Shown piece after piece: positions 13,984 to 56,507 of a stretch of DNA of 64,000 nt. The DNA is from an uncultured Rivularia sp. (lineage in GTDB: Bacteria > Cyanobacteriota > Cyanobacteriia > Cyanobacteriales > Nostocaceae): assembly GCA_963665115.1 (NCBI GenBank), contig OY762007.1, positions 1,216,001 through 1,280,000 on the forward strand, written 5' to 3'. A model generated the notes under the pieces. That model ran no database searches, was not told the origin of the DNA, and saw nothing but the letters and a program-made list of their open reading frames with translations. Both the position numbers and the translations under genes were made by a program. Within the stretch, counting starts at the first letter, position 1, and each line of letters opens with the position of its first letter.

Positions 13984-15381
13984 TCAATCCAATGGTTTCA
14001 TCGATAACACTGGTTCATCTTCCCGTTCGATACCTCTTTCAAAACCCGCAGCAGCAGCTCTTGCGCGACCAGCGTGCCAAAGATGACCGACAAGAAACAG
14101 TAGTGAAAAAATAAAGTGAGCAGAAGCCAGCCAGGTACGAGGCCCAACAAAGTTGAAGGCATTAAGTTCAGTTGCTAGACCACCAACTGAATTTATAGAG
14201 CCGATGGGAGAATGAGTCATGTATTCGGCCGCCCGACGCTTTTGCCAAGGTTGAATATCATTCTTGAGCTTATCTATATCTAGTCCATTAGTTCCTCGTA
14301 ACGGTTCTAACCAAGGAGCTTTGACATCCCAAAAGCGCATTGTTTCAGCCCCAAAGATGATTTCTCCTGTTGGCGATCGCTGTAAATATTTACCTAAACC
14401 AGTCGGACCTTGGGATGTAGATATATTCGCTCCTAAAGCTTGGTCGCGCACTATAAAGTTGAATACTTGAGAATTGGCAGCCTCTGCAACTGTCGGGCCA
14501 TAAAACTCGCTCGGATAAGCAGTATTGTTAAACCAGATAAACATCGCAGCAATAAAAGCTTGTCCGGCTACATTACCCAAACTTTGAGAAAGATAGGCTT
14601 CACCAGACCAAATAAATACTCTATCGGTCCACTTAAAAGGTTTAGTGATAATGTGCCAAATACCACCAAGTATTAGTAAACCACCTACCCAAATATGACC
14701 GCCAACTAAATCCTCTAAGTTATCAACGCTAACAATATTACCAGCACCCCCCGTAAACGGACTAAATATGTAACCAAAAATTATTCTTGGGTCAAGAGTT
14801 GGGCTGGTAACAAGGCGCACATCACCGCCACCCGGTACCCAAGTATCATATAAACCACCCCAAAACATAGCTTTACCGACAAGTACGTAAGCCGCTAGAC
14901 CAAGGGCAATCAAATGATATCCCAGAATACTAGTAACTTTGTCCTTGTCGCTCCAATCAAAATTGAAGAAACCTGCTAGCTTTTCGGGACCTCTAATTGA
15001 GTGATAAATCCCACCAAAACCTAAAACAGCAGAGCCTATTAAATGCGTTACCGCAATAGCAAAAAATGGGAAAGTGTCTACAATTTCACCCCCATATCCT
15101 ACACCAATGCCGAGAGTGGCAATATGAGGCATTAAAATTAAGCCCTGCTCGTACATCGGCTTTTCTGGTATATAGTGAGCAACTTCAAACAACAGCATTG
15201 CTCCAGCCCAGAACGCAATTACTCCAGCATGAGCAACATGAGCGCCTAAAAAGCGACCGGATAAATTGATAAAACGGGCATTACCAGCCCACCATGCATA
15301 TCCAGTAGATGCCTCATCACGACCTTCTCTCTTTTCAGAGTTAACAGTCGTCGTGCTTGATTTTTCAAAAGGTGTTTCCAT
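13984..15381 (-). CDS. psbC2: Photosystem II CP43, far-red paralog
   Basis: [42 protein letters not shown]. Confidence 0.95.
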
Positions 15382-44035: not shown

Positions 44036-46404
44036 ATGACAATAACTCCAGAGCGAGAGCAAAAAGTAAAGGTAGTAGTTGACAAAGATCCGGTGCCTAC
44101 TTCTTTTGAGAAGTGGTCGAAACCAGGACACTTCGATCGCTCTCTTACTAGAGGTCCTAAAACCACAACTTGGATTTGGAATCTGCACGCCCTGGCTCAT
44201 GATTTCGATACTCATACCAGTGACTTGGAAGATGTATCTCGCAAAATCTTCGCTGCTCACTTTGGACATTTAGCAGTGATTTTCATCTGGTTGAGCGGGA
44301 TGTATTATCACGGGGCAAGGTTTTCCAATTTTGAATCTTGGATGACTAACCCCACTGGAATTAAACCAAGCGCTCAAATAGTCTGGCCAATATTTGGTCA
44401 AGATATTTTGAATGCCGATATGGGTGATGGCTTCCACGGTATTCAAATTACTTCTGGACTTTTCCAATTGTGGCGGGGTGCTGGATTTACTAATACTTTC
44501 CAGCTTTACTGCACGGCAATTGGAGCGTTAGTAATGGCAGCACTAATGCTGTTTGCTGGCTGGTTCCACTATCACAAACGCGCTCCTAAACTGGAATGGT
44601 TTCAGAATGTGGAGTCGATGTTAAATCACCACTTAGCTGGACTTCTAGGTTTAGGTTCGTTGGGTTGGTGCGGACACCTGATTCATGTTTCTTTACCCAC
44701 TAACAAGCTGTTGGATGCTGGGGTGGCTCTTAAGGATATTCCTTTACCTCACGAGTTCATTTTGAATTCCAGTTTAATGGGAAGATTATATCCCAGTGTT
44801 AATTGGGGTTTTATGAGTGGAGTAGTACCATTTTTTACTCTGAATTGGGATCGATACAAAGACTTTCTGACATTCAACGGCGGTCTAAACCCTACTACTG
44901 GTGGCTTGTGGTTAACAGATATAGCGCACCATCACCTAGCTATAGCTGTAATGTTTATTTTTGCGGGTCATATGTACCGCACTAACTGGGGCATTGGTCA
45001 TAACATCAAGCTTATGCTCGATGACCTGAGAAGTCCTAATATGCTGCCATTTTTGAGCTTTATTGGTCCTAGAGGTCATAAAGGTCTTTATGAAGTCCTG
45101 ACAACTTCCTGGCACGCTCAACTATCAGTCAATTTGGCGATGATGGGTTCTCTGAGTATGATCGTTGCCCATCATATGTATGCAATGCCGCCCTATCCTT
45201 ACCTGGCAACAGACTATGCCACAGTTTTATCTTTGTTCACTCACCATATATGGATTGGAGGTTTTCTGATAGTCGGTGCTGCGGCTCATGGTGCGATTTA
45301 TATGGTGCGCGACTACGACCCAGAAGTTAATTATAATAACGTACTCGATCGCGTAATTCGACACCGAGACGCAATTGTTTCTCACCTAGCTTGGGTGTGT
45401 CAATTCCTCGGCTTTCACAGCTTTGCAATGTATTGTCACAACGACACAATGCGGGCTTTTGGTCGTCCCCAGGATATGTTTTCGGATACGGGAATTCAAT
45501 TACAGCCCGTTTTTGCTCAGTGGATACAGCATATTCACACAATGGCAATTGGAAATCTAGGATTGCAAGCGGCTACACCTTTAGGCAATATGTTTGGGGG
45601 CTTAAGCAATTTACAAACCTCTGGACTGGGAATGACGGCTCCAAGTTTACACGAGCCTGTTAGCTATGCCTTTGGAGGCGGTATTCTTGCAGTGGCTGGT
45701 AAAGTGGCAATGATGCCTATTCCTCTGGGAACGGCTGATTTCTTAATTCACCACATCCATGCTTTTACAATTCACGTCACGGTACTAGTTCTGCTCAAGG
45801 GTGTACTATTTGCTCGCAGTTCCCGCTTAATTCCAGATAAAGCAAACCTCGGTTTCCGCTTCCCTTGCGATGGGGCCCTGGTCGTGGCGGTACTTGTCAG
45901 GTATCTGCTTGGGACCATGTATTCTTAGGACTGTTCTGGATGTATAATTCCCTGTCGATGGTAATTTTCCACTTCTTTTGGAAGATGCAGTCGGATGTCT
46001 GGGGGACGGTTGATGGTAATGGGGTAGTTACTCACATTACTGGTGGAAACTTTGCGATGTCATCGATTACGAATAACGGCTGGTTGCGGGACTTTCTCTG
46101 GGCGCAATCTTCCCAAGTAATCAATTCCTACAATAGTGCGCTTTCTGGATACGGGTTAATGTTCTTAGCCGGACACTTCGTTTTTGGCTTCAGTTTGATG
46201 TTCCTATTTAGCGGTCGTGGCTACTGGCAAGAACTGATTGAATCCATTGTTTGGGCGCACAACAAGTTAAAAATTACCACAGCGATTCAGCCCCGTGCTT
46301 TGAGCATTGTTCAAGGTCGGGCTGTGGGTGCTGCTCACTATCTCTTGGGAGGAATTGTTACTACTTGGGCATTCTTCCTAGCACGAATGAGCGCACTTGG
46401 TTGA
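44036..46404 (+). CDS. psaA2: Photosystem I PsaA, far-red paralog; apparent frameshift at ~45873
   Basis: Start MTITPERE after AAGGAG; lumenal insertion [14 protein letters not shown].... The FX motif [12 protein letters not shown] is restored by removing two bases in GGGGCCC. Confidence 0.93.
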
Positions 46405-46453
46405 AGAAACATCAAAACTCTTGTTCGACTCTCGTACTCTCACTCTCGTGACT

Positions 46454-46558
46454 CTCGTTACTAGGCAGAGCCTAGTAATGGATAAAGGGAGGCTCTGCCT
46501 CCTGAGATGGAAGGCAGAGCCTTTAGATATGCATTCCCTGGCAGAGCCAGGGAACGAG
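46454..46558. repeat. Dispersed palindromic element
   Basis: ctcgttactaggcagagcctagtaatg ... gcattccctggcagagccagggaacgag, with three GGCAGAGCC cores on the + strand and one inverted. Confidence 0.7.
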
Positions 46559-46625
46559 GAGCGCAAAAACGAAAAAACCAACCTAGAATTCATAATTTTC
46601 CCTTACTCAAAAACAATGAAAGTTT

Positions 46626-48848
46626 ATGGCAACTAAATTTCCTAAATTTAGCCAAGACTTGGCACAAGATCCGACAACTCGTCGCGTTTGGTATGCGATC
46701 GCAACTGCTCACGATTTTGAAAGTCACGACGAAATGACGGAGGAAAATCTTTATCAAAGGATTTTTGCTTCTCACTTTGGTCATTTGGCGATTATCTTCC
46801 TGTGGGCTTCGGGTATTCTGTTCCACGTTGCTTGGCAAGGTAACTTTGAAGTTTGGATTAAAGATCCACTCCACGTACATCCAATTGCCCACGCGATTTG
46901 GGATGCTCAATTTGGACCACCAGCGATTGAGGCTTTTACTCAAGCTGGAGCGCATAATCCCGTAGATATCTGCTACTCTGGCGTTTACCATTGGTGGTAC
47001 ACCATCGGTATGCGGGCAAATAATGAACTTTATGGTGGTTCGTTGTTTCTTTTACTACTTGCGGCTGTATTCTTATTTGCAGGATGGCTGCACCTCAAGC
47101 CGAAGTTTCGTCCGGGACTTGCTTGGTTTAAAAACAACGAATCTCGTCTAAATCATCACCTAGCTGGTTTATTCGGTATTAGCTCTTTGGCTTGGGCTGG
47201 ACATTTGATCCATGTCGCAATCCCCGAATCTCGCGGTATTCATGTTGGCTGGAATAACTTTCTAGCTGTGGCTCCACACCCCAGTGGATTGTTACCGTTT
47301 TTCACGGGTAACTGGGGTGTTTACGCACAAAATCCGGATACGGCCAATCATGTATTTAGTTCTTCTGAAGGTGCGGGGACGGCAATTCTCACCTTTTTAG
47401 GTGGCTTCCACCCGCAAACAGAATCGCTGTGGCTAACAGATATGGCGCATCACCACTTGGCGATCGCAGTGATTTTCATTGTTGCGGGTCATATGTACCG
47501 TACCAATTGGAGTATCGGTCACAGCATGAAGGAAATGCTCAATGCTAAGAACTTTTTTGGGCAGAAGGTGGAAGGGCAGTTCAATTTACCTCACCAAGGA
47601 CTGTACGATACAATCAACAACTCTTTACATTTTCAACTGTCTTTAGCGCTAGCTTGTTTGGGTGTAGCGAGTTCTTTGGTGGCACAGCATATGTATTCGA
47701 TGCCGCCTTATGCTTTCATAGCTCGCGATTTTACTACAATGTCAGCGCTTTATACCCATCACCAATACATAGCCGGATTTTTGATGGTAGGGGCATTTTC
47801 TCACGCTGCGATTTTCTGGATTAAAGACTATGACTCAGAATTGAACAAGGGTAATGTCCTAGAAAGAGTTTTGCAGCACAAAGAAGCGATTATTGCTCAC
47901 CTGAGTTGGGTATCTCTATTCCTTGGCTTTCACACTTTGGGATTGTACGTTCACAATGACGTAGAGGTTGCTTTTGGTGCAGCGGATAAACAAGTCCTAA
48001 TTGAGCCAGTATTTGCTCAGTTTATCCAGTCGGCTCACGGAAAAGTACTCTACGGATTTAACACTTTGCTGTCGAACTCCGATAGTATTGCTTCGACAGC
48101 ATGGCCGAACCACGCTAACGTTTGGCTGCCCGGTTGGCTCGATGCAGTTAACAGTGGTGCGAACTCCTTATTTTTGACAATTGGTCCTGGTGACTTTTTG
48201 GTTCACCACGCGATCGCCTTGGGCTTGCACGTTACCACCTTGGTTTTAGTTAAAGGTGCGTTGGATGCTCGTGGTTCCAAACTAATGCCAGATAAGAAAG
48301 ACTTTGGTTACTCTTTCCCTTGTGATGGTCCCGGACGTGGCGGTACCTGCGATATCTCTGCTTGGGATGCTTCTTATCTAGGTGTATTCTGGATGCTCAA
48401 TAGCCTTGGTTGGATAACATTCTACTGGCACTGGAAGCATTTAGCTATTTGGTCTGGAAATGTCGCCCAATTCAATGAAAATTCTACTTATTTGATGGGC
48501 TGGTTCCGAGACTACTTGTGGAACTATTCAGCATCACTGATTAACGGTTACAATCCTTACGGTACCAATAACCTAGCTGTTTGGACTTGGATGTTCCTCC
48601 TCGGACATTTAGCTTGGGCTGTGAGTTTCATGTTCTTAATTACTTGGCGGGGTTACTGGCAAGAGTTGATTGAAACTCTCGCTTGGGCACACGAACAAAC
48701 ACCACTATCTTTTGGTTACTGGAAAGATAAGCCTGTTGCTTTGTCTATTGTTCAGGCTCGTTTAGTTGGCTTAACTCACTTCACCGTTGGTTATATTGCC
48801 ACCTATGGGGCATTTCTAATTGCTTCGACGGCAAGTCGATTTGGTTGA
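46626..48848 (+). CDS. psaB2: Photosystem I PsaB, far-red paralog
   Basis: [38 protein letters not shown], 740 aa. Confidence 0.95.
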
Positions 48849-49140
48849 CGATTTTCACAATATGTAAAGACGTAGCAATGCTACGTCTCTGCATTCAATA
48901 AAAAAACCTATTTTTTACTACTATTATTAAAGCTGAGAAAACTTATTTTTGAGCTTTACAAATTTGTCATTCGACCTCCTCTGACATGAGAGCCAAAGCC
49001 TATTTGTTAGAGGTTTTTTTTATGCTTAATTAATTGAAAAAGTATTGATTTTTGTGACAATTAAATATAAAAAAGTACATTCATTTATAAAATTAAGATA
49101 AGAGGATTTTCATAAGTAATAAAATAAAGAATAGGGAACT

Positions 49141-49653
49141 ATGGCTAATACCGATACAGAAATTATAAAACCATATCAAGGCAACCCCTTTGTTGCAAAT
49201 TTATCTACACCTATCAACGATTCTCCCCTAGCAAAAGCCTTTATTAATAATTTACCTGCTTATCGTCAAGGCTTAACTCCTTTTATGCGAGGTTTAGAAA
49301 TTGGTATGGCTCACGGTTACTTTCTAGTAGGACCAGAAGTTGTAGTTGGACCACTCCGAGAAACTGCACATGGGGCTAATTTAAGTGGATTAATTACCGC
49401 TATTTTTATCACTGTATCAGCCTGTTTGGGCATATCTATTTTTGCCTTGGCTACTTTTCAAGGAAATCCTCGCGGGGCTTATAACTCCTACTGCAAAGAT
49501 CCTTTAAGACCATTGCGAACTCGTGAAGAATGGAATCAACTTAATGGGGGAATATTTATTGGTTCAATGGGTGGAGCCGTGTTTGCTTACTTGCTATTAG
49601 AAAATTTTGATGCTTTAGATGCCATGCTTCGCGGTGCAGTTAATGTTGGCTGA
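49141..49653 (+). CDS. psaL2: Photosystem I subunit XI, far-red paralog
   Basis: LSTPINDS, NNLPAYR, GLEIGMAHGYFLVGP. Confidence 0.92.
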   Translation: MANTDTEIIKPYQGNPFVANLSTPINDSPLAKAFINNLPAYRQGLTPFMRGLEIGMAHGYFLVGPEVVVGPLRETAHGANLSGLITAIFITVSACLGISIFALATFQGNPRGAYNSYCKDPLRPLRTREEWNQLNGGIFIGSMGGAVFAYLLLENFDALDAMLRGAVNVG

Positions 49654-49716
49654 TGTTTGATTTTTGGGCTTAAATTTTCAATAGCTATTTACTTCTATCT
49701 AAGCAGGAGAATAATC

Positions 49717-49914
49717 ATGGTAGATATCACACAACTGACAGGAGAATATGCGGCTTCCTGGTTGCCTTGGATAATGATTCCTTTAATTTTTTATATCCTA
49801 CCTTTCCCCATTTTCGCTATCCTTTTTCTTTGGATTGAAAAAGAAGATATTGAAGAAGAAAGAACGGATATTCCAGTAAATCAAATGATGGGTAATGTCA
49901 CAAATATGGACTAA
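49717..49914 (+). CDS. psaI2: Photosystem I subunit VIII, far-red paralog
   Basis: ATG after AGGAG; MVDITQLTGEYAASWLPWIMIPLIFYILPFPIFAILFLWIEKE. Confidence 0.9.
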   Translation: MVDITQLTGEYAASWLPWIMIPLIFYILPFPIFAILFLWIEKEDIEEERTDIPVNQMMGNVTNMD

Positions 49915-51767: not shown

Positions 51768-51880
51768 AATGCATCTTCTATAGTTTGAGCAGAAAATAGA
51801 TGTCGCCAAACCTGCGGAATAATGCTTTCACGATTAGAAACCGGGAATCTAGCTATTGGTACAAGATGTGCATTTTAACT

Positions 51881-52145
51881 TACATCTTGCACCAGTTGTA
51901 ATAACTGCCTTGGAATTTATTCCAAGGCTTATACACAAAGTCCGATCAATCAGACTGAGCAAAGATTCCAGTAGGTTTTAATGTACTATGGCGTTCCACT
52001 ACGCCCTCGCCGCACCTGCGGTGAACGCTAACGTATATTAGCCGCATCAATTGATTTCTCTACGTTCACGCGGAGCGTGCGGGCTAGAAAGCCTCCGGCT
52101 TACAAGGTGGTTGTGAAGGCTGAACGAAAATGGTGCAATATGTCA
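51881..52145. repeat. MITE-like element with nested inserts
   Basis: TACATCTTGCACCA ... TGGTGCAATATGT; internal similarity to 5576-5748. Confidence 0.6.
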
Positions 52146-52315
52146 GTTTTAACGTACTTGCTTTGTTAGCCTGGGAATTGATTTGGAGGCGGATTTAAAG
52201 CTAGTGGATAATGTTGAAAATGTCATGTTTTACATTTTGTACCATTATCAAAACCGCCGGGTAATCTAATTTAAATACCTACGCAATGTTACTTCTAAGA
52301 GGATGTTTTAAAAGT

Positions 52316-52597
52316 CTAATTTAATACTTTACTTGTTGCTGAATCACATATGCCCCCAATATATGATGTGTTTTTTAATGTACATAGTGGCTCGTTAGGA
52401 TTACATTTATCAATCTCGTCTTCCAAAAACTTGAGATTAGATACCGCAGAGTTTAGAAACTGTCGAACTTCAAACTCCTTATTATCTTTGGAGATCAAAT
52501 TGGGGACAATTGCAGATCCGATCGCCCCAAGCATTCCCAATAAAGCAACCACAACTGGAATGGTATTTTGACCCGATTTGTTGCCTTTTGAACTCAT
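52316..52597 (-). CDS. Hypothetical protein, probable second cassette gene (possibly truncated)
   Basis: Begins 48 bp after the GTTAGAC core site; N-terminal TM helix. Confidence 0.5.
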   Translation of the reverse strand: MSSKGNKSGQNTIPVVVALLGMLGAIGSAIVPNLISKDNKEFEVRQFLNSAVSNLKFLEDEIDKCNPNEPLCTLKNTSYIGGICDSATSKVLN

Positions 52598-52644
52598 GAC
52601 TGATGTACTGGATTGATTTTATCTTCACTGTTATGACCGAAGCG

Positions 52645-52717
52645 GTCTAACGCTTCGCATCAGCGGTAGACAAAGCGCGTAGCGGTTTGGCGATCCGGCT
52701 GCATACGCTTGTTATAT
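52645..52717 (-). other. Integron attC-like recombination site (73 bp)
   Basis: Minus strand: ATATAAC-AAGCGTATGCAGCCGG...CCGCTGATGCGAAGC-GTTAGAC. R'' overlaps the methyltransferase stop codon; R' matches GTTRRRY. Confidence 0.8.
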
Positions 52718-53359
52718 TTTGTGTAATTTCTTTGCTGCAACAAAATAGCTAGATGCTCCTTTGAATATTTCTTCGGACTCAATGGCCTCGAGTTCCCCTT
52801 TTGCTAACAAAATGTCTATGTCACTACTTTTTATTCTTCTAATTGGAATGGGAATTACTCCAAACTTACACAATATCCGAACCAGCTGTATCTGGAGATT
52901 AACTAAAAATGACATCTTTTGCCCTAAGCAAGGCGTTACAGAAATAAATATGCCGTCAGGCTTTAACAGGTCATTTATTCGATACACAACATTTTGCGGA
53001 TTGGGTACTGTGTGCAACATGTTGAAAGCTAGAATCATATCAAATGATTCATTTTGAAATTTATCTTCAAATAAGTCCGCCTTTTCGAAGTGTACATTAT
53101 CAATTTTACTAACAACTGCTTTCTCTTTTGCTATCCGAATCATCTCAGATGAGATATCGATACCTTGTATTTCTTTCACCTGACTGGAAAACTCACAGGA
53201 TGCTGTGCCGGTTCCGCATCCATAATCCATAACGATATAACTATCTTTGAGGTGCTTTTTGGTGTTCTCCCTTGCCTTTTTATGGATGTATTCAAAACGC
53301 TTTTCTGTCTTGTCATAATTTTTTGAAGCCTTATTCCAAAAATCTTCCGACTTATTCAT
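52712..53359 (-). CDS. Class I SAM-dependent methyltransferase (gene cassette)
   Basis: VMDYGCGTG, GIDISSEMI, LLKPDGIFISVTPC; AAGGAG RBS; only ~20 bp of leader after a GTTATGT core site. Confidence 0.9.
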   Translation of the reverse strand: MNKSEDFWNKASKNYDKTEKRFEYIHKKARENTKKHLKDSYIVMDYGCGTGTASCEFSSQVKEIQGIDISSEMIRIAKEKAVVSKIDNVHFEKADLFEDKFQNESFDMILAFNMLHTVPNPQNVVYRINDLLKPDGIFISVTPCLGQKMSFLVNLQIQLVRILCKFGVIPIPIRRIKSSDIDILLAKGELEAIESEEIFKGASSYFVAAKKLHKI

Positions 53360-53379
53360 TGTTTATAGCTCCTTGAAAA

Positions 53380-53479
53380 ACATAACGCTCAGCTAAATGG
53401 CGAAGTAATGTTGGCGACTTTTGTGCGTTTCTTTGCACAAAAGGTGCCAATATTACAAAGAGCGAAGTTAATCCAAACT
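53380..53479 (-). other. Truncated attC-like site
   Basis: R' GTTATGT (53380-53386), L'-like TTTAGCT and a long inner hairpin (53405-53456). The R''/L'' arm is absent, replaced by the CRISPR repeat. Confidence 0.6.
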
Positions 53480-53656
53480 CCCCACCGATTGGGTTAATTC
53501 GGATTAGTTGGAAACGCCCCCGGTTGTGACTCCACCTGTACCTCCAACCCCCACCGATTGGGTTAATTCGGATTAGTTGGAAACCCTTATGTATCCAGTT
53601 TACAGCAATGTTCACTTCTTCCCCACCGATTGGGTTAATTCGGATTAGTCGAAAAC
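53480..53656 (+). CRISPR. Orphan mini CRISPR array: 3 repeats, 2 spacers
   Basis: 36-bp repeat CCCCACCGATTGGGTTAATTCGGATTAGTTGGAAAC at 53480, 53549 and 53621 (last degenerate, ending TCGAAAAC). Spacers are 33 and 36 bp. No cas genes in the window. Confidence 0.88.
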
Positions 53657-53711
53657 TTGTAGAGACGTAGCACTGCTACGTCTCCCAACCCGTTGAAAAA
53701 AAACTCGTCAA

Positions 53712-56507
53712 TTAAAGCCAATTCCCAACTAAGACATAAGGTGCCCAAATCAACGGCGGTTCACTATTCTTTAAAAGTTTAATTTGGGCTTGCTGTAAAG
53801 CTTTTGCTTTGTTCGATTTATGCTGTTGTAATTCTCGGTAAAATTGACTCATCAATTGAGCAGTAGATTTATCTTCAACAGCCCATAAGCTAGCTAAAGT
53901 ACTCCTGGCACCCGCACTAATAGCAATCCCAGAAAGCCCTAAAGTTGCTCTTTTATCTCCATTAGCGGTTTCGCAAGCACTAAGTACTAATAACTCAATA
54001 GCTTGAGAATCTGCATTTTTATTAATCTGAAATAATTTATCGAAGTCTTCAAGTTTTAATAGTTTGTTCCACGTCAAAATATAGGTTTCTTCTGAGTTTG
54101 AACTAAAATTACCGTGGGTAGCAATATGAACTATGGTATATTTGGCTGAATCAATTTGCTTTTCTAAGTTGACATCGGTGAAGGATCGATCGATCAGTTT
54201 TTTACTTTTAGGTATTTGTAACCTAATTGTATCCAACTCAAGCTGCACGTTATTGAGAGGATTAAATTCTTGATTATTAATTATTCGCTTTTCGGTGACT
54301 CCAGCCATCAGAATATTTAATTCTTTTCTTTTTAACGGTTTTGGCTCCAGCATTTGCAAACCTGGAGTTAAAACAATGGCATATTTTTCGATTAAATATT
54401 TTGGCTGTTTTTCTTGCGCTTTACTATCGTATAATACCGCCATTGGAATATTTCTTAAGTTGCCATCTAAGACAAATACCAATGTTTCTATTTTGTTTTG
54501 TTCTAAATCAGCTTCTAATGGTTGAATTAACCAACTATATATCTTTCCAGAGATTTGATTTACTTTCTTAATTTGTTCTGGTTGTCTGAGACTGTATTGT
54601 AGTTTTTCTAAGGTGTTTTCAAGTTCATTCGCTTTAAGAAAAGTGGTGTAACGATTAAATTTATCTTGATTGGGAAGTTTGAGAATTATTTCGAGACGGT
54701 TTTGTAAAATAATTGGGTAAATAACTGCTGCTGCGGTATCAGTGTTATCAACTACTGTATCAATAATTTCAGGTTTAGCCTGCAAGCAAACTTCCTGAAA
54801 GTAATTTTCTATTTCCCTTAATTGTAGAGCTTCAATCACATCGCGGGCTTTTTTTAAGTTGTTGCTAACTAAGTTTTGTTTACTCAAACTTTTTGTAGTT
54901 ACATTCTGAGATGGTGACTGTAAAAGTAAATCAACGAGTTGTCTATAAACTGGCTCTACTTTATCTCGAAATGAATATTGTATATCTGAATTGAGTACGA
55001 GCAAATCACCACGCAAATCGTTTAAATTCTCTACCGCTTGAGAATAATATTCTATTGCTGAGGTAGTGTTTTGTTCAAGTTTGAATATATATCCTAATTG
55101 CCATTGCCAAAGATAAGCTATATCTTGAGCTTCTATTCTCAAGGCTAAGTCAACAGCTTTTTTAGTTAGTTTACCAGCGGAATTCAAATTTTGGGTTTGT
55201 AAGTATACGCTACCAAGAGTACCCATTGCATAAGATTGCAATCTTGTATCTTCCAAGGTTTCCGCTTGTTTAATCGATAAAGCTAAAATTTTGGCTATCT
55301 TTTCCCATTCCGGTACATTGCTCGGACTTACTTGTTTTAATAATAATAGATTTTGTGCTAAATTAATCCGAGCCTTAAGTGATGTGTTAGATACGGGCAA
55401 TGTATTGATAGTTGGTTGCAATTCAGAGAATAATTTGCCAGCTTTGGAAAATTCTTCAAGTTCTATTAATACACTAAATTTATTTAATTGGGCTTTAACT
55501 TTGATTGCGGGTGATGTCGATACAGCTACAGTTTTATCGTAGTTTTCTAAGGCTTGCTGATATAATTTTCTTGTTTCTTCAGATATCGGTTTACTCACAT
55601 AAACTAACGGCGAAGTTTGCTCAAATATTGTTGCGTTTTGTAAAAGCGACTGCTCTTTATTTCCCTTTGCACGTTGAGCGTTACCCAAACTCAGCAAAGT
55701 TTGAGCGATTTGAGGATTAGATTTAATTTCTTGAGCGGTTTGATAGCTTTGCTGTAAAATTTTTAAGGAGGCTTCAATTTCCCCTAAATGTAATTGAACG
55801 TCACCAAAACTGCGTAATGCTGTTACTTTAAGAACGGAGGCTGGCTGTTGATTTAATTCGGGAAGCACTTGTTCTAAAGTTTTCAGAGCTAGGTGATAAC
55901 GTCCTAAAGCTTGTAATGCCAGACTTTGATTGATTAAACTCCGAATTTTTGCATTATTGAAATCACCTCGTTCGTAGATAGCAGTAGCTTTTTTCCAGTT
56001 TTCTAGAGCTAATAAGGGTTTTCCTAACGTTAACTGGATGTTAGCTTGAATATCTAAAACTTGAGCAAATACTTTTAATCTTTCCTTGTCATCATCAATA
56101 TTTAATTTATTTTCTAATAATTGACGGCTTTGGATAATGTACTTCAGAGCTTGCTGATATTCACTAATTTGCTTGTAAGCGTTGGAAATATTGCTGAGTG
56201 CGATCGCCTGTTTAATTGGATTACTTTGATTTTGAAAAGTTAGCGCTGCTTGCTCTAAAATAGATATCGCTTCTGAAAACCTTTGTGCATCATAAAGTTT
56301 TTTACCTTTTTCCAATAAATCTTCTGTATTTATCTGATTTTGACTAATTTGAGCCAGATAAGCTGGATTAAAATTACTTTGTGTGAAATTATTTTGAGCA
56401 TCAGCTTTCGGTAGCGAAACAGGAATTAAAATTGATTCGCAAACAAAAGTGAATATACCTGCTAAAACAAATAAAATTATTTTTGAAAGCCATCTTTTAT
56501 ATTGCAT
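53712..56507 (-). CDS. TPR + CHAT domain protein
   Basis: Signal peptide, TPRs, HIATHGNFS, LSACETA, WAPYVLVGNWL. Confidence 0.9.
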   Translation of the reverse strand: MQYKRWLSKIILFVLAGIFTFVCESILIPVSLPKADAQNNFTQSNFNPAYLAQISQNQINTEDLLEKGKKLYDAQRFSEAISILEQAALTFQNQSNPIKQAIALSNISNAYKQISEYQQALKYIIQSRQLLENKLNIDDDKERLKVFAQVLDIQANIQLTLGKPLLALENWKKATAIYERGDFNNAKIRSLINQSLALQALGRYHLALKTLEQVLPELNQQPASVLKVTALRSFGDVQLHLGEIEASLKILQQSYQTAQEIKSNPQIAQTLLSLGNAQRAKGNKEQSLLQNATIFEQTSPLVYVSKPISEETRKLYQQALENYDKTVAVSTSPAIKVKAQLNKFSVLIELEEFSKAGKLFSELQPTINTLPVSNTSLKARINLAQNLLLLKQVSPSNVPEWEKIAKILALSIKQAETLEDTRLQSYAMGTLGSVYLQTQNLNSAGKLTKKAVDLALRIEAQDIAYLWQWQLGYIFKLEQNTTSAIEYYSQAVENLNDLRGDLLVLNSDIQYSFRDKVEPVYRQLVDLLLQSPSQNVTTKSLSKQNLVSNNLKKARDVIEALQLREIENYFQEVCLQAKPEIIDTVVDNTDTAAAVIYPIILQNRLEIILKLPNQDKFNRYTTFLKANELENTLEKLQYSLRQPEQIKKVNQISGKIYSWLIQPLEADLEQNKIETLVFVLDGNLRNIPMAVLYDSKAQEKQPKYLIEKYAIVLTPGLQMLEPKPLKRKELNILMAGVTEKRIINNQEFNPLNNVQLELDTIRLQIPKSKKLIDRSFTDVNLEKQIDSAKYTIVHIATHGNFSSNSEETYILTWNKLLKLEDFDKLFQINKNADSQAIELLVLSACETANGDKRATLGLSGIAISAGARSTLASLWAVEDKSTAQLMSQFYRELQQHKSNKAKALQQAQIKLLKNSEPPLIWAPYVLVGNWL

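Follow-up and report, generated by a model that had tools for sequence, protein, structure and literature searches.

The 64-kb window, by which we mean the whole stretch of DNA that was analyzed, carries a small methyltransferase gene packaged in the manner of an integron gene cassette, and yet a search with the TIGR02249 profile found no integron integrase in the genome, which is 99.93% complete. How did such a gene come to rest in a cyanobacterial chromosome? A preliminary description, made from the letters alone, had proposed the capture of a fragment of a foreign, probably proteobacterial, cassette array. The features needed to judge this proposal are as follows (window coordinates).

51802 to 53711, no strand: lineage-specific patch between two syntenic host genes, delimited by comparison with genome G003
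52299 to 52333, plus strand: dispersed cyanobacterial repeat, one end only, sharing a 4-bp microhomology (52330-52333) with the cassette DNA that it abuts
52316 to 52597, minus strand: ORF2, 93 aa, co-oriented with the methyltransferase gene, starting at 52597; 89 cassette codons, then four codons and the stop from the host repeat
52330 to 52650, minus strand: truncated second cassette without an attC of its own; identity with the copy in genome G016 stops at 52330
52645 to 52717, minus strand: intact attC of the methyltransferase cassette, matched by a covariance model, with R'' over the stop codon, L boxes and R' GTTAGAC
52651 to 53385, minus strand: complete mobile cassette, 735 bp from crossover to crossover, delimited by the boundaries of similarity in near-identical loci
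52712 to 53359, minus strand: class I SAM-dependent methyltransferase, 215 aa, an open frame with a DYGCGTG motif
53380 to 53456, minus strand: remainder of an upstream attC, 77 bp (inner stem, L' and R' GTTATGT); identity with G016 stops at 53456
53457 to 53479, plus strand: 19 bp without a matched source, then AACT, which probably represents the final 4 bp of a CRISPR leader now lost
53480 to 53656, plus strand: leaderless CRISPR mini-array, with three 36-bp repeats (the last degenerate) and two spacers of 33 and 36 bp

The methyltransferase gene and its attC constitute a genuine integron gene cassette. The 73 bp that begin with ATATAAC end in GTTAGAC (52651-52645), and their R''-L''...L'-R' boxes pair on the bottom strand according to our own covariance model, which was built from 33 attC-like sites taken by rule from fetched loci and given a hand-set structure. 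The training sites were at most 63% identical to the window attC, and the cassette's own site and its close family were excluded. The model matched 52645-52717 with 39.5 bits (E = 4.7e-7), the next best score in the 64-kb window being 11.4 bits, and this was its sole match in the genome among the 150 of 752 candidates that were scored. The attC architecture read in the preliminary description is borne out by this match, and a separate whole-genome attC scan placed the same site at the top of six candidates (43.5 versus 25.6). A plain rule-based scan, unspecific by itself, gave seven candidates in the window; the plain hairpin energy of the site is modest (z = −2.2 on the bottom strand, with 4/200 shuffles as good), and an Rfam scan of the window returned nothing at the cassette locus. 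Compared to the shared allele, the window attC carries three substitutions, at 52716, 52705 and 52668 (in R'', L'' and the inner stem, respectively), and the attC of the same cassette scores 46.6 and 50.6 bits in the G016 and L029 alleles versus 39.5 bits here. The covariance-model scan was also run genus-wide with 150 candidates scored per genome, at which depth it missed known sites in G007 and its zeros are uninformative.

The gene organization on the minus strand of the window, where the methyltransferase cassette and ORF2 both lie, is equally typical of a cassette. The core GTTATGT (53386-53380) is followed by exactly 20 nt containing an AAGGAG ribosome site and then by the ATG at 53359, and ATATAAC (52717-52711) overlaps the TAA stop of the gene; hence there is a single ORF with minimal flanks and with R'' at its stop codon, complementary to the cassette's own core. 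Everything in the layout previously described (a start about 20 bp after GTTATGT, ATATAAC over the stop, 73 bp to GTTAGAC and a co-oriented second ORF) is present in the sequence; the half attC, the CRISPR mini-array and the host-repeat origin of the final codons of ORF2 are additions to that description. The complementarity between R'' and the core was also counted correctly as 6/7 in the window allele; the allele common to L024, L027 and L049 has ACATAAC, which is complementary at 7/7 positions, and the lower count is thus due to a substitution in the window lineage.

The encoded protein matches Pfam Methyltransf_31 (E = 2.4e-25), and none of the 25 matches listed for NCBIfam lies above its family cut-off. 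Its predicted model (pLDDT 78) resembles many small-molecule methyltransferases at 14-24% identity, and comparison with PDB sequences and folds for a substrate gave matches that were all distant; the enzyme most likely acts on a small molecule. The gene retains its ribosome site and frame, and its expression is predicted to need read-through or a chance promoter: a promoter scan found two sites at the locus versus 5.0 expected, and no terminator was found there. A 931-aa TPR-CHAT gene on the same strand as the cassettes (window 53712-56507) ends just upstream of the mini-array and the cassettes and is a possible source of read-through. Relative to the shared allele, the window methyltransferase has three amino-acid changes and zero silent changes; close alleles elsewhere likewise differ mainly by amino-acid changes, and relaxed selection specific to the window copy is therefore not shown. 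For ORF2, no family match was found in Pfam or NCBIfam and no homologue beyond its own 4-member cluster; its best Atlas feature score was 0.80 and its structure matches were below threshold, which we take as leads only.

Searching for the methyltransferase protein, we obtained 1089 homologues among 1193 candidates. In 9 of 22 genome loci the identity is at least 90% (six cyanobacteria, Desulfobacula, Thiohalocapsa and a Thiotrichales bin), and the other 13, at 69-84% identity, are all labelled Gammaproteobacteria, several of the 22 loci being bins, some apparently from one project, in a search that favors close relatives. A near-identical cassette is common to three phyla. Among 12 near-identical loci (L027, L029-L032, L035 and L049-L054), the stretch similar to the window begins at 53386-53388 in 11 loci and has its other boundary at 52645-52651, again in 11, as is characteristic of a unit moving between GTT crossovers; L033, L034 and L055 were left outside this count because of a differing attC or a contig end. 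Eight different sequences follow the downstream core of the cassette across loci. In L049-L052 the cassette resides in a complete metagenomic integron with an IntI above the TIGR02249 cut-off, and the L049 copy differs from that in the window at five positions in about 740 bp. In the loci L027, L029, L032, L033 and L054, the cassette is located directly behind an attI-like sequence, which in L033 stands beside a near-complete intI with one premature stop. The cassette is mobile elsewhere, being bounded by GTT cores in many settings, one of them a complete integron.

Where the cassette came from is answered differently for the wider family and for the immediate donor. The earlier, tentative attribution to Proteobacteria stands for the wider family, in which 13 of 13 loci at 69-84% identity are labelled Gammaproteobacteria. 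It does not extend to the immediate donor, since six of the nine loci at 90% identity or more are cyanobacterial and several cyanobacteria have attI-like sites before the cassette. Further, in a methyltransferase tree that left out L038 and, for its aberrant end, L065, the 10 closest sequences form a star without resolution, and therefore no donor can be named.

Several other settings of this gene deserve mention. In the cyanobacterial loci L027, L029, L033 and L034, the cassette lies amid ZnuB/AztB-like and CobW/ZigA-like genes, suggesting from gene content a zinc-starvation island; a similar attI-like region recurs in L027, L029 and L033, and of these only L033 has intI next to it. A third genus member, G007, has an independently acquired cassette with an 81%-identical methyltransferase (L025:7413-8235), whose upstream attC is intact and whose downstream attC is without a GTT core. 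Another cyanobacterium (L122, G653:C301) carries a 65%-identical homologue with two internal stops and a degenerate core before it.

The absence of an integrase, as first described, was confirmed by more than the profile search. With the L049 IntI as a query, tblastn gave no match in the genome, and with two open cyanobacterial IntI proteins it gave weak matches only (best E = 0.018); the 12 generic tyrosine recombinase matches in the genome are also weak (best E = 3e-15). Neither an intI gene nor a remnant of one was found. The attI sites of integrons are poorly conserved, and six cyanobacterial attI-side regions gave no convincing match at the cassette locus, a result that leaves room for a divergent attI elsewhere; the first core at the locus belongs to an attC, and no attI precedes the first cassette. 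In the phylum, IntI above the cut-off was found in 22 of 401 genomes. Within the genus, attC cassettes of a different sequence type occur in G550:C651, C397, G009:C3, G012:C38 and G008:C92 (L108-L112), and in G550:C651 two of these stand beside an intI fragment.

What surrounds the whole cassette is cut on both sides. The upstream attC has lost its first 27 bp, with R'' and L'', and gives no covariance-model match in the window. Another genome of the genus, G016, contains both cassettes with 98.9% identity over window 53456-52330 (12 differences in 1127 bp), in a copy located at an unrelated site between two broken host genes, which we take to be the start of a glycoside hydrolase-like gene and the end of a kinase-like gene. 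This copy has kept the upstream attC in full (104 bp, 41.7 bits), preceded by part of a third cassette, and its ORF2 is 123 aa long; since it lies on a MAG contig and its ORF2 too has no attC after it, it may not be the original form. The proposed capture of an array fragment is thus supported by a whole cassette with a truncated attC on one side and a truncated second cassette on the other. Its designation as a CALIN holds in part: the genome is without an integrase, but the window has one intact attC, its upstream site being cut and giving no score, whereas two or more sites, the number set for a CALIN in the cited part of PMC9024848, are present in G016.

The two junctions bear on how the piece was joined, or later trimmed. 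At the left, cassette DNA meets the dispersed repeat end, presumably that of a MITE-like element, which supplies the last four codons and the stop of ORF2. A 17-bp end of this repeat has 15 matches in the genome, with the same continuation in relatives; one such end is present at the locus, with no paired terminal inverted repeats around a cargo as in a composite MITE. In a family-wide DNA search, 87 of 150 family genomes contained the short repeat end only, and none of the 150 contained the cassettes. At the right, the 23 bp before the first CRISPR repeat had no exact match in viral contigs, none in 26 other genus genomes and none among 513 spacers. Microhomology is seen at the left junction only. 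IntI joins DNA at the GTT crossover, and both ends of the piece are cut through elements instead; since no integrase crossover coincides with either junction, the piece was likely captured or trimmed independently of integrase.

The piece is part of a patch that also contains further dispersed repeats, at about 51870-52200 and 53657-53690 according to repeat copy counts. The piece was not inherited vertically: in G003, the same two flanking genes are separated by about 390 unrelated bp and the cassettes are absent, and the methyltransferase gene was found in 3 of 301 order genomes, the window genome included. Elsewhere in the window, a psaA-psaB-like pair is followed by psaL- and psaI-like ORFs (45865-49914), which from their translations are possibly an alternative photosystem I gene set, and Rfam matches the IsrR antisense RNA at 14769-14955 with 141 bits.

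Contigs from sequencing runs indicate that the locus is real and that the piece is likely decaying in place. In run X9, which may be the source sample and then would not be independent, one contig spans 52091-53493 without differences, at a depth of 212 versus 203 in the flanks. X12, from the same study, holds a distinct allele whose contigs (52303-52760 and 53135-53505) cross both junctions; the right junction is also covered in X4, of another study, up to 53473, and the left one in X6, of a third. In X1 and X6, from two studies, an allele occurs from which 52332-52653, that is, ORF2 and the attC core, is missing and the methyltransferase side is kept.

The mini-array next door raises the matter of CRISPR involvement. 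Its repeat is identical to that of a 90-repeat array beside cas2/cas1 and a reverse transcriptase about 430 kb away, and the cassettes lie on its leader side. Searching with a profile of 26 leaders gave no match at the cassette and mini-array locus. The AACT before the first repeat is likely the last 4 bp of the lost leader, judging from other arrays: 26 of 27 array starts end in GAACT, a proportion inflated by the fact that most were fetched by a pattern containing this motif, and all five cas-linked leaders, chosen without it, show the conserved leader end; among 647 spacers, two end in AACT. Neither spacer of the mini-array had an exact match in viral contigs. Two further candidates were rejected: the cassettes as a giant CRISPR spacer, as there is no repeat (nor leader) on the far side, and 52000-52315 as a leader, as the same profile does not match it and much of it is dispersed repeat. 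Beside the 90-repeat array (G000:C1:1706078-1709166), cas2, an ORF resembling a four-helix bundle, cas1 and a separately encoded reverse transcriptase of group II-like type follow one another. At the edge of a cmr-like cluster (G000:C1:1685218-1685330), one diverged CRISPR repeat is accompanied by a spacer and part of a second repeat, which we assume may be a regulatory mini-array. The leader profile matches G000:C1:738779-738973 and 89371-89543 (E = 7e-22 and 2e-17, respectively), with no repeat of the mini-array type beside them.

Taking these observations together, we consider it probable that a 1.1-kb scrap of a cassette array was joined to the chromosome by integrase-independent recombination of a microhomology type and is now decaying in an integrase-free genome. 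The order of half-attC, methyltransferase and ORF2 would have been assembled by IntI in another organism, and natural transformation would be the likely route of entry, the source being either the original array or a co-occurring relative; G016 would be such a relative, as its longer piece includes the whole of the window piece. The genome has comEC and dprA, although competence genes do not prove transformability. Joining, or later trimming, may have proceeded by illegitimate recombination, with erosion since, and the ends of the piece may have been set on insertion or by later deletions. In Acinetobacter, cassettes are reported to be taken up by transformation without an integrase, but the cases in the cited portion of that work are homologous recombination and transposition rather than microhomology joining (PMC3410848). 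As it stands, the cassette is predicted to be unable to excise, lacking an IntI and having just one whole attC; were an IntI to arrive, the most it could do would be to insert DNA at the attC that is left.

The main rival is a decayed native cyanobacterial integron, in which IntI loaded the cassettes at attI, and intI, attI and the two array ends were then deleted, for the platform could indeed have been lost through deletions; we judge this possible but rather unlikely. Short-piece capture and the trimming of a longer, IntI-loaded array leave identical ends. The frequency of IntI in the phylum (22/401), the attI-like sequences before the same cassette in L027, L029, L032, L033 and L054, with intI in L033, the cassettes beside an intI fragment in G550 of the same genus, and the deletion ongoing at the locus in the X1 and X6 alleles are all in keeping with such a history. 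However, the genome holds no trace of intI, the locus has no attI-side match, G003 is without an integron at this site, G016 carries this pair of cassettes at another site, and the attC sites of G550, G009, G012 and G008 differ in sequence (by eye) from the one here.

It is very improbable that the CRISPR adaptation machinery helped, with Cas1-Cas2 attaching a long foreign DNA by one end close to the leader-repeat junction, and with repair then fixing its other end and displacing the leader. On the leader side, the foreign DNA does stop 23 bp short of the first repeat, the leader is missing, and elsewhere in the genome an array of the mini-array repeat has cas1-cas2 and their neighboring reverse transcriptase next to it; on the other hand, there is no repeat at the other end, 19 bp in between are unexplained, and the 4 bp immediately preceding the repeat agree with the leader end, whereas a precise joint at the repeat would not have kept them. 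This is also one case only. That the leader-repeat junction is an entry point for kilobase-sized foreign DNA, Cas1-Cas2 having opened the chromosome and the array piece having replaced the leader, strikes us as very doubtful; if true, it would be an integrase-free cyanobacterial route into the marine cassette pool, which together with native docking sites would put one methyltransferase into many benthic cyanobacteria. Among the papers listed by literature searches, none concerned cassettes at CRISPR leaders, although supplements may list the locus. An assembly chimera, in which contaminant cassette DNA was joined to a cyanobacterial chromosome through repeats, might be suspected from the 3.31% contamination listed for the genome and from repeats at both junctions; with an unchanged contig at flank-level depth in X9, both junctions crossed in X12, the right one in X4 and the left one in X6, it is extremely improbable.

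How does the captured array scrap compare to known systems? Like the CALINs and single attC sites of Cury et al. (2016, PMC4889954) and Neron et al. (2022, PMC9024848), as far as the cited parts describe them, it has an attC-bounded cassette in a genome without intI, a situation reported in the first of these for half of 279 CALINs. It differs in its single intact attC, below the default threshold of two in the cited part (reached by the G016 copy), and in having its ends cut in the middle of elements, against a repeat end and a CRISPR array. The CALIN origins named in these parts (secondary-site insertion, intI loss and rearrangement) do not include a junction of this type. Integrons do occur in Cyanobacteria according to PMC4889954, where clusters of degenerate attC sites are also seen as a stage on the way to fixation of a gene, and a cyanobacterial attC model exists (PMC8352920). 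Native cyanobacterial integrons and their integrase-less remains, such as L033, have the same cassette docked at attI-like sites, whereas the window has neither an attI-like site nor an intI stump and its cassette follows another attC. Marine arrays are also related: L049 carries the cassette, and L063 has attC sites up to 91% identical to the window attC. Yet L049-L053 and L063 are multi-cassette arrays, with IntI in L049-L052, and the window holds a stranded piece. Leaderless orphan CRISPR arrays are short, far from cas genes and end in a degenerate repeat; the mini-array is alike, but its leader side is occupied by integron cassette DNA. Cassettes with cyanobacterial-type attC sites have been described from macroalgal (seaweed) biofilms in the cited part of PMC10963911.

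The locus is a clear but rather ordinary case of a known kind of gene capture and not a new system. Its value lies in the detail: the junctions, resolved to the base, show how a gene from the integron pool may be fixed without an integrase, and the longer copy in a relative, together with alleles that have eroded to different degrees, supports the view, already published, that integrase-less cassettes are a stage on the way to stabilization of a gene. As the methyltransferase recurs in marine cyanobacteria, testing its function would be reasonable.
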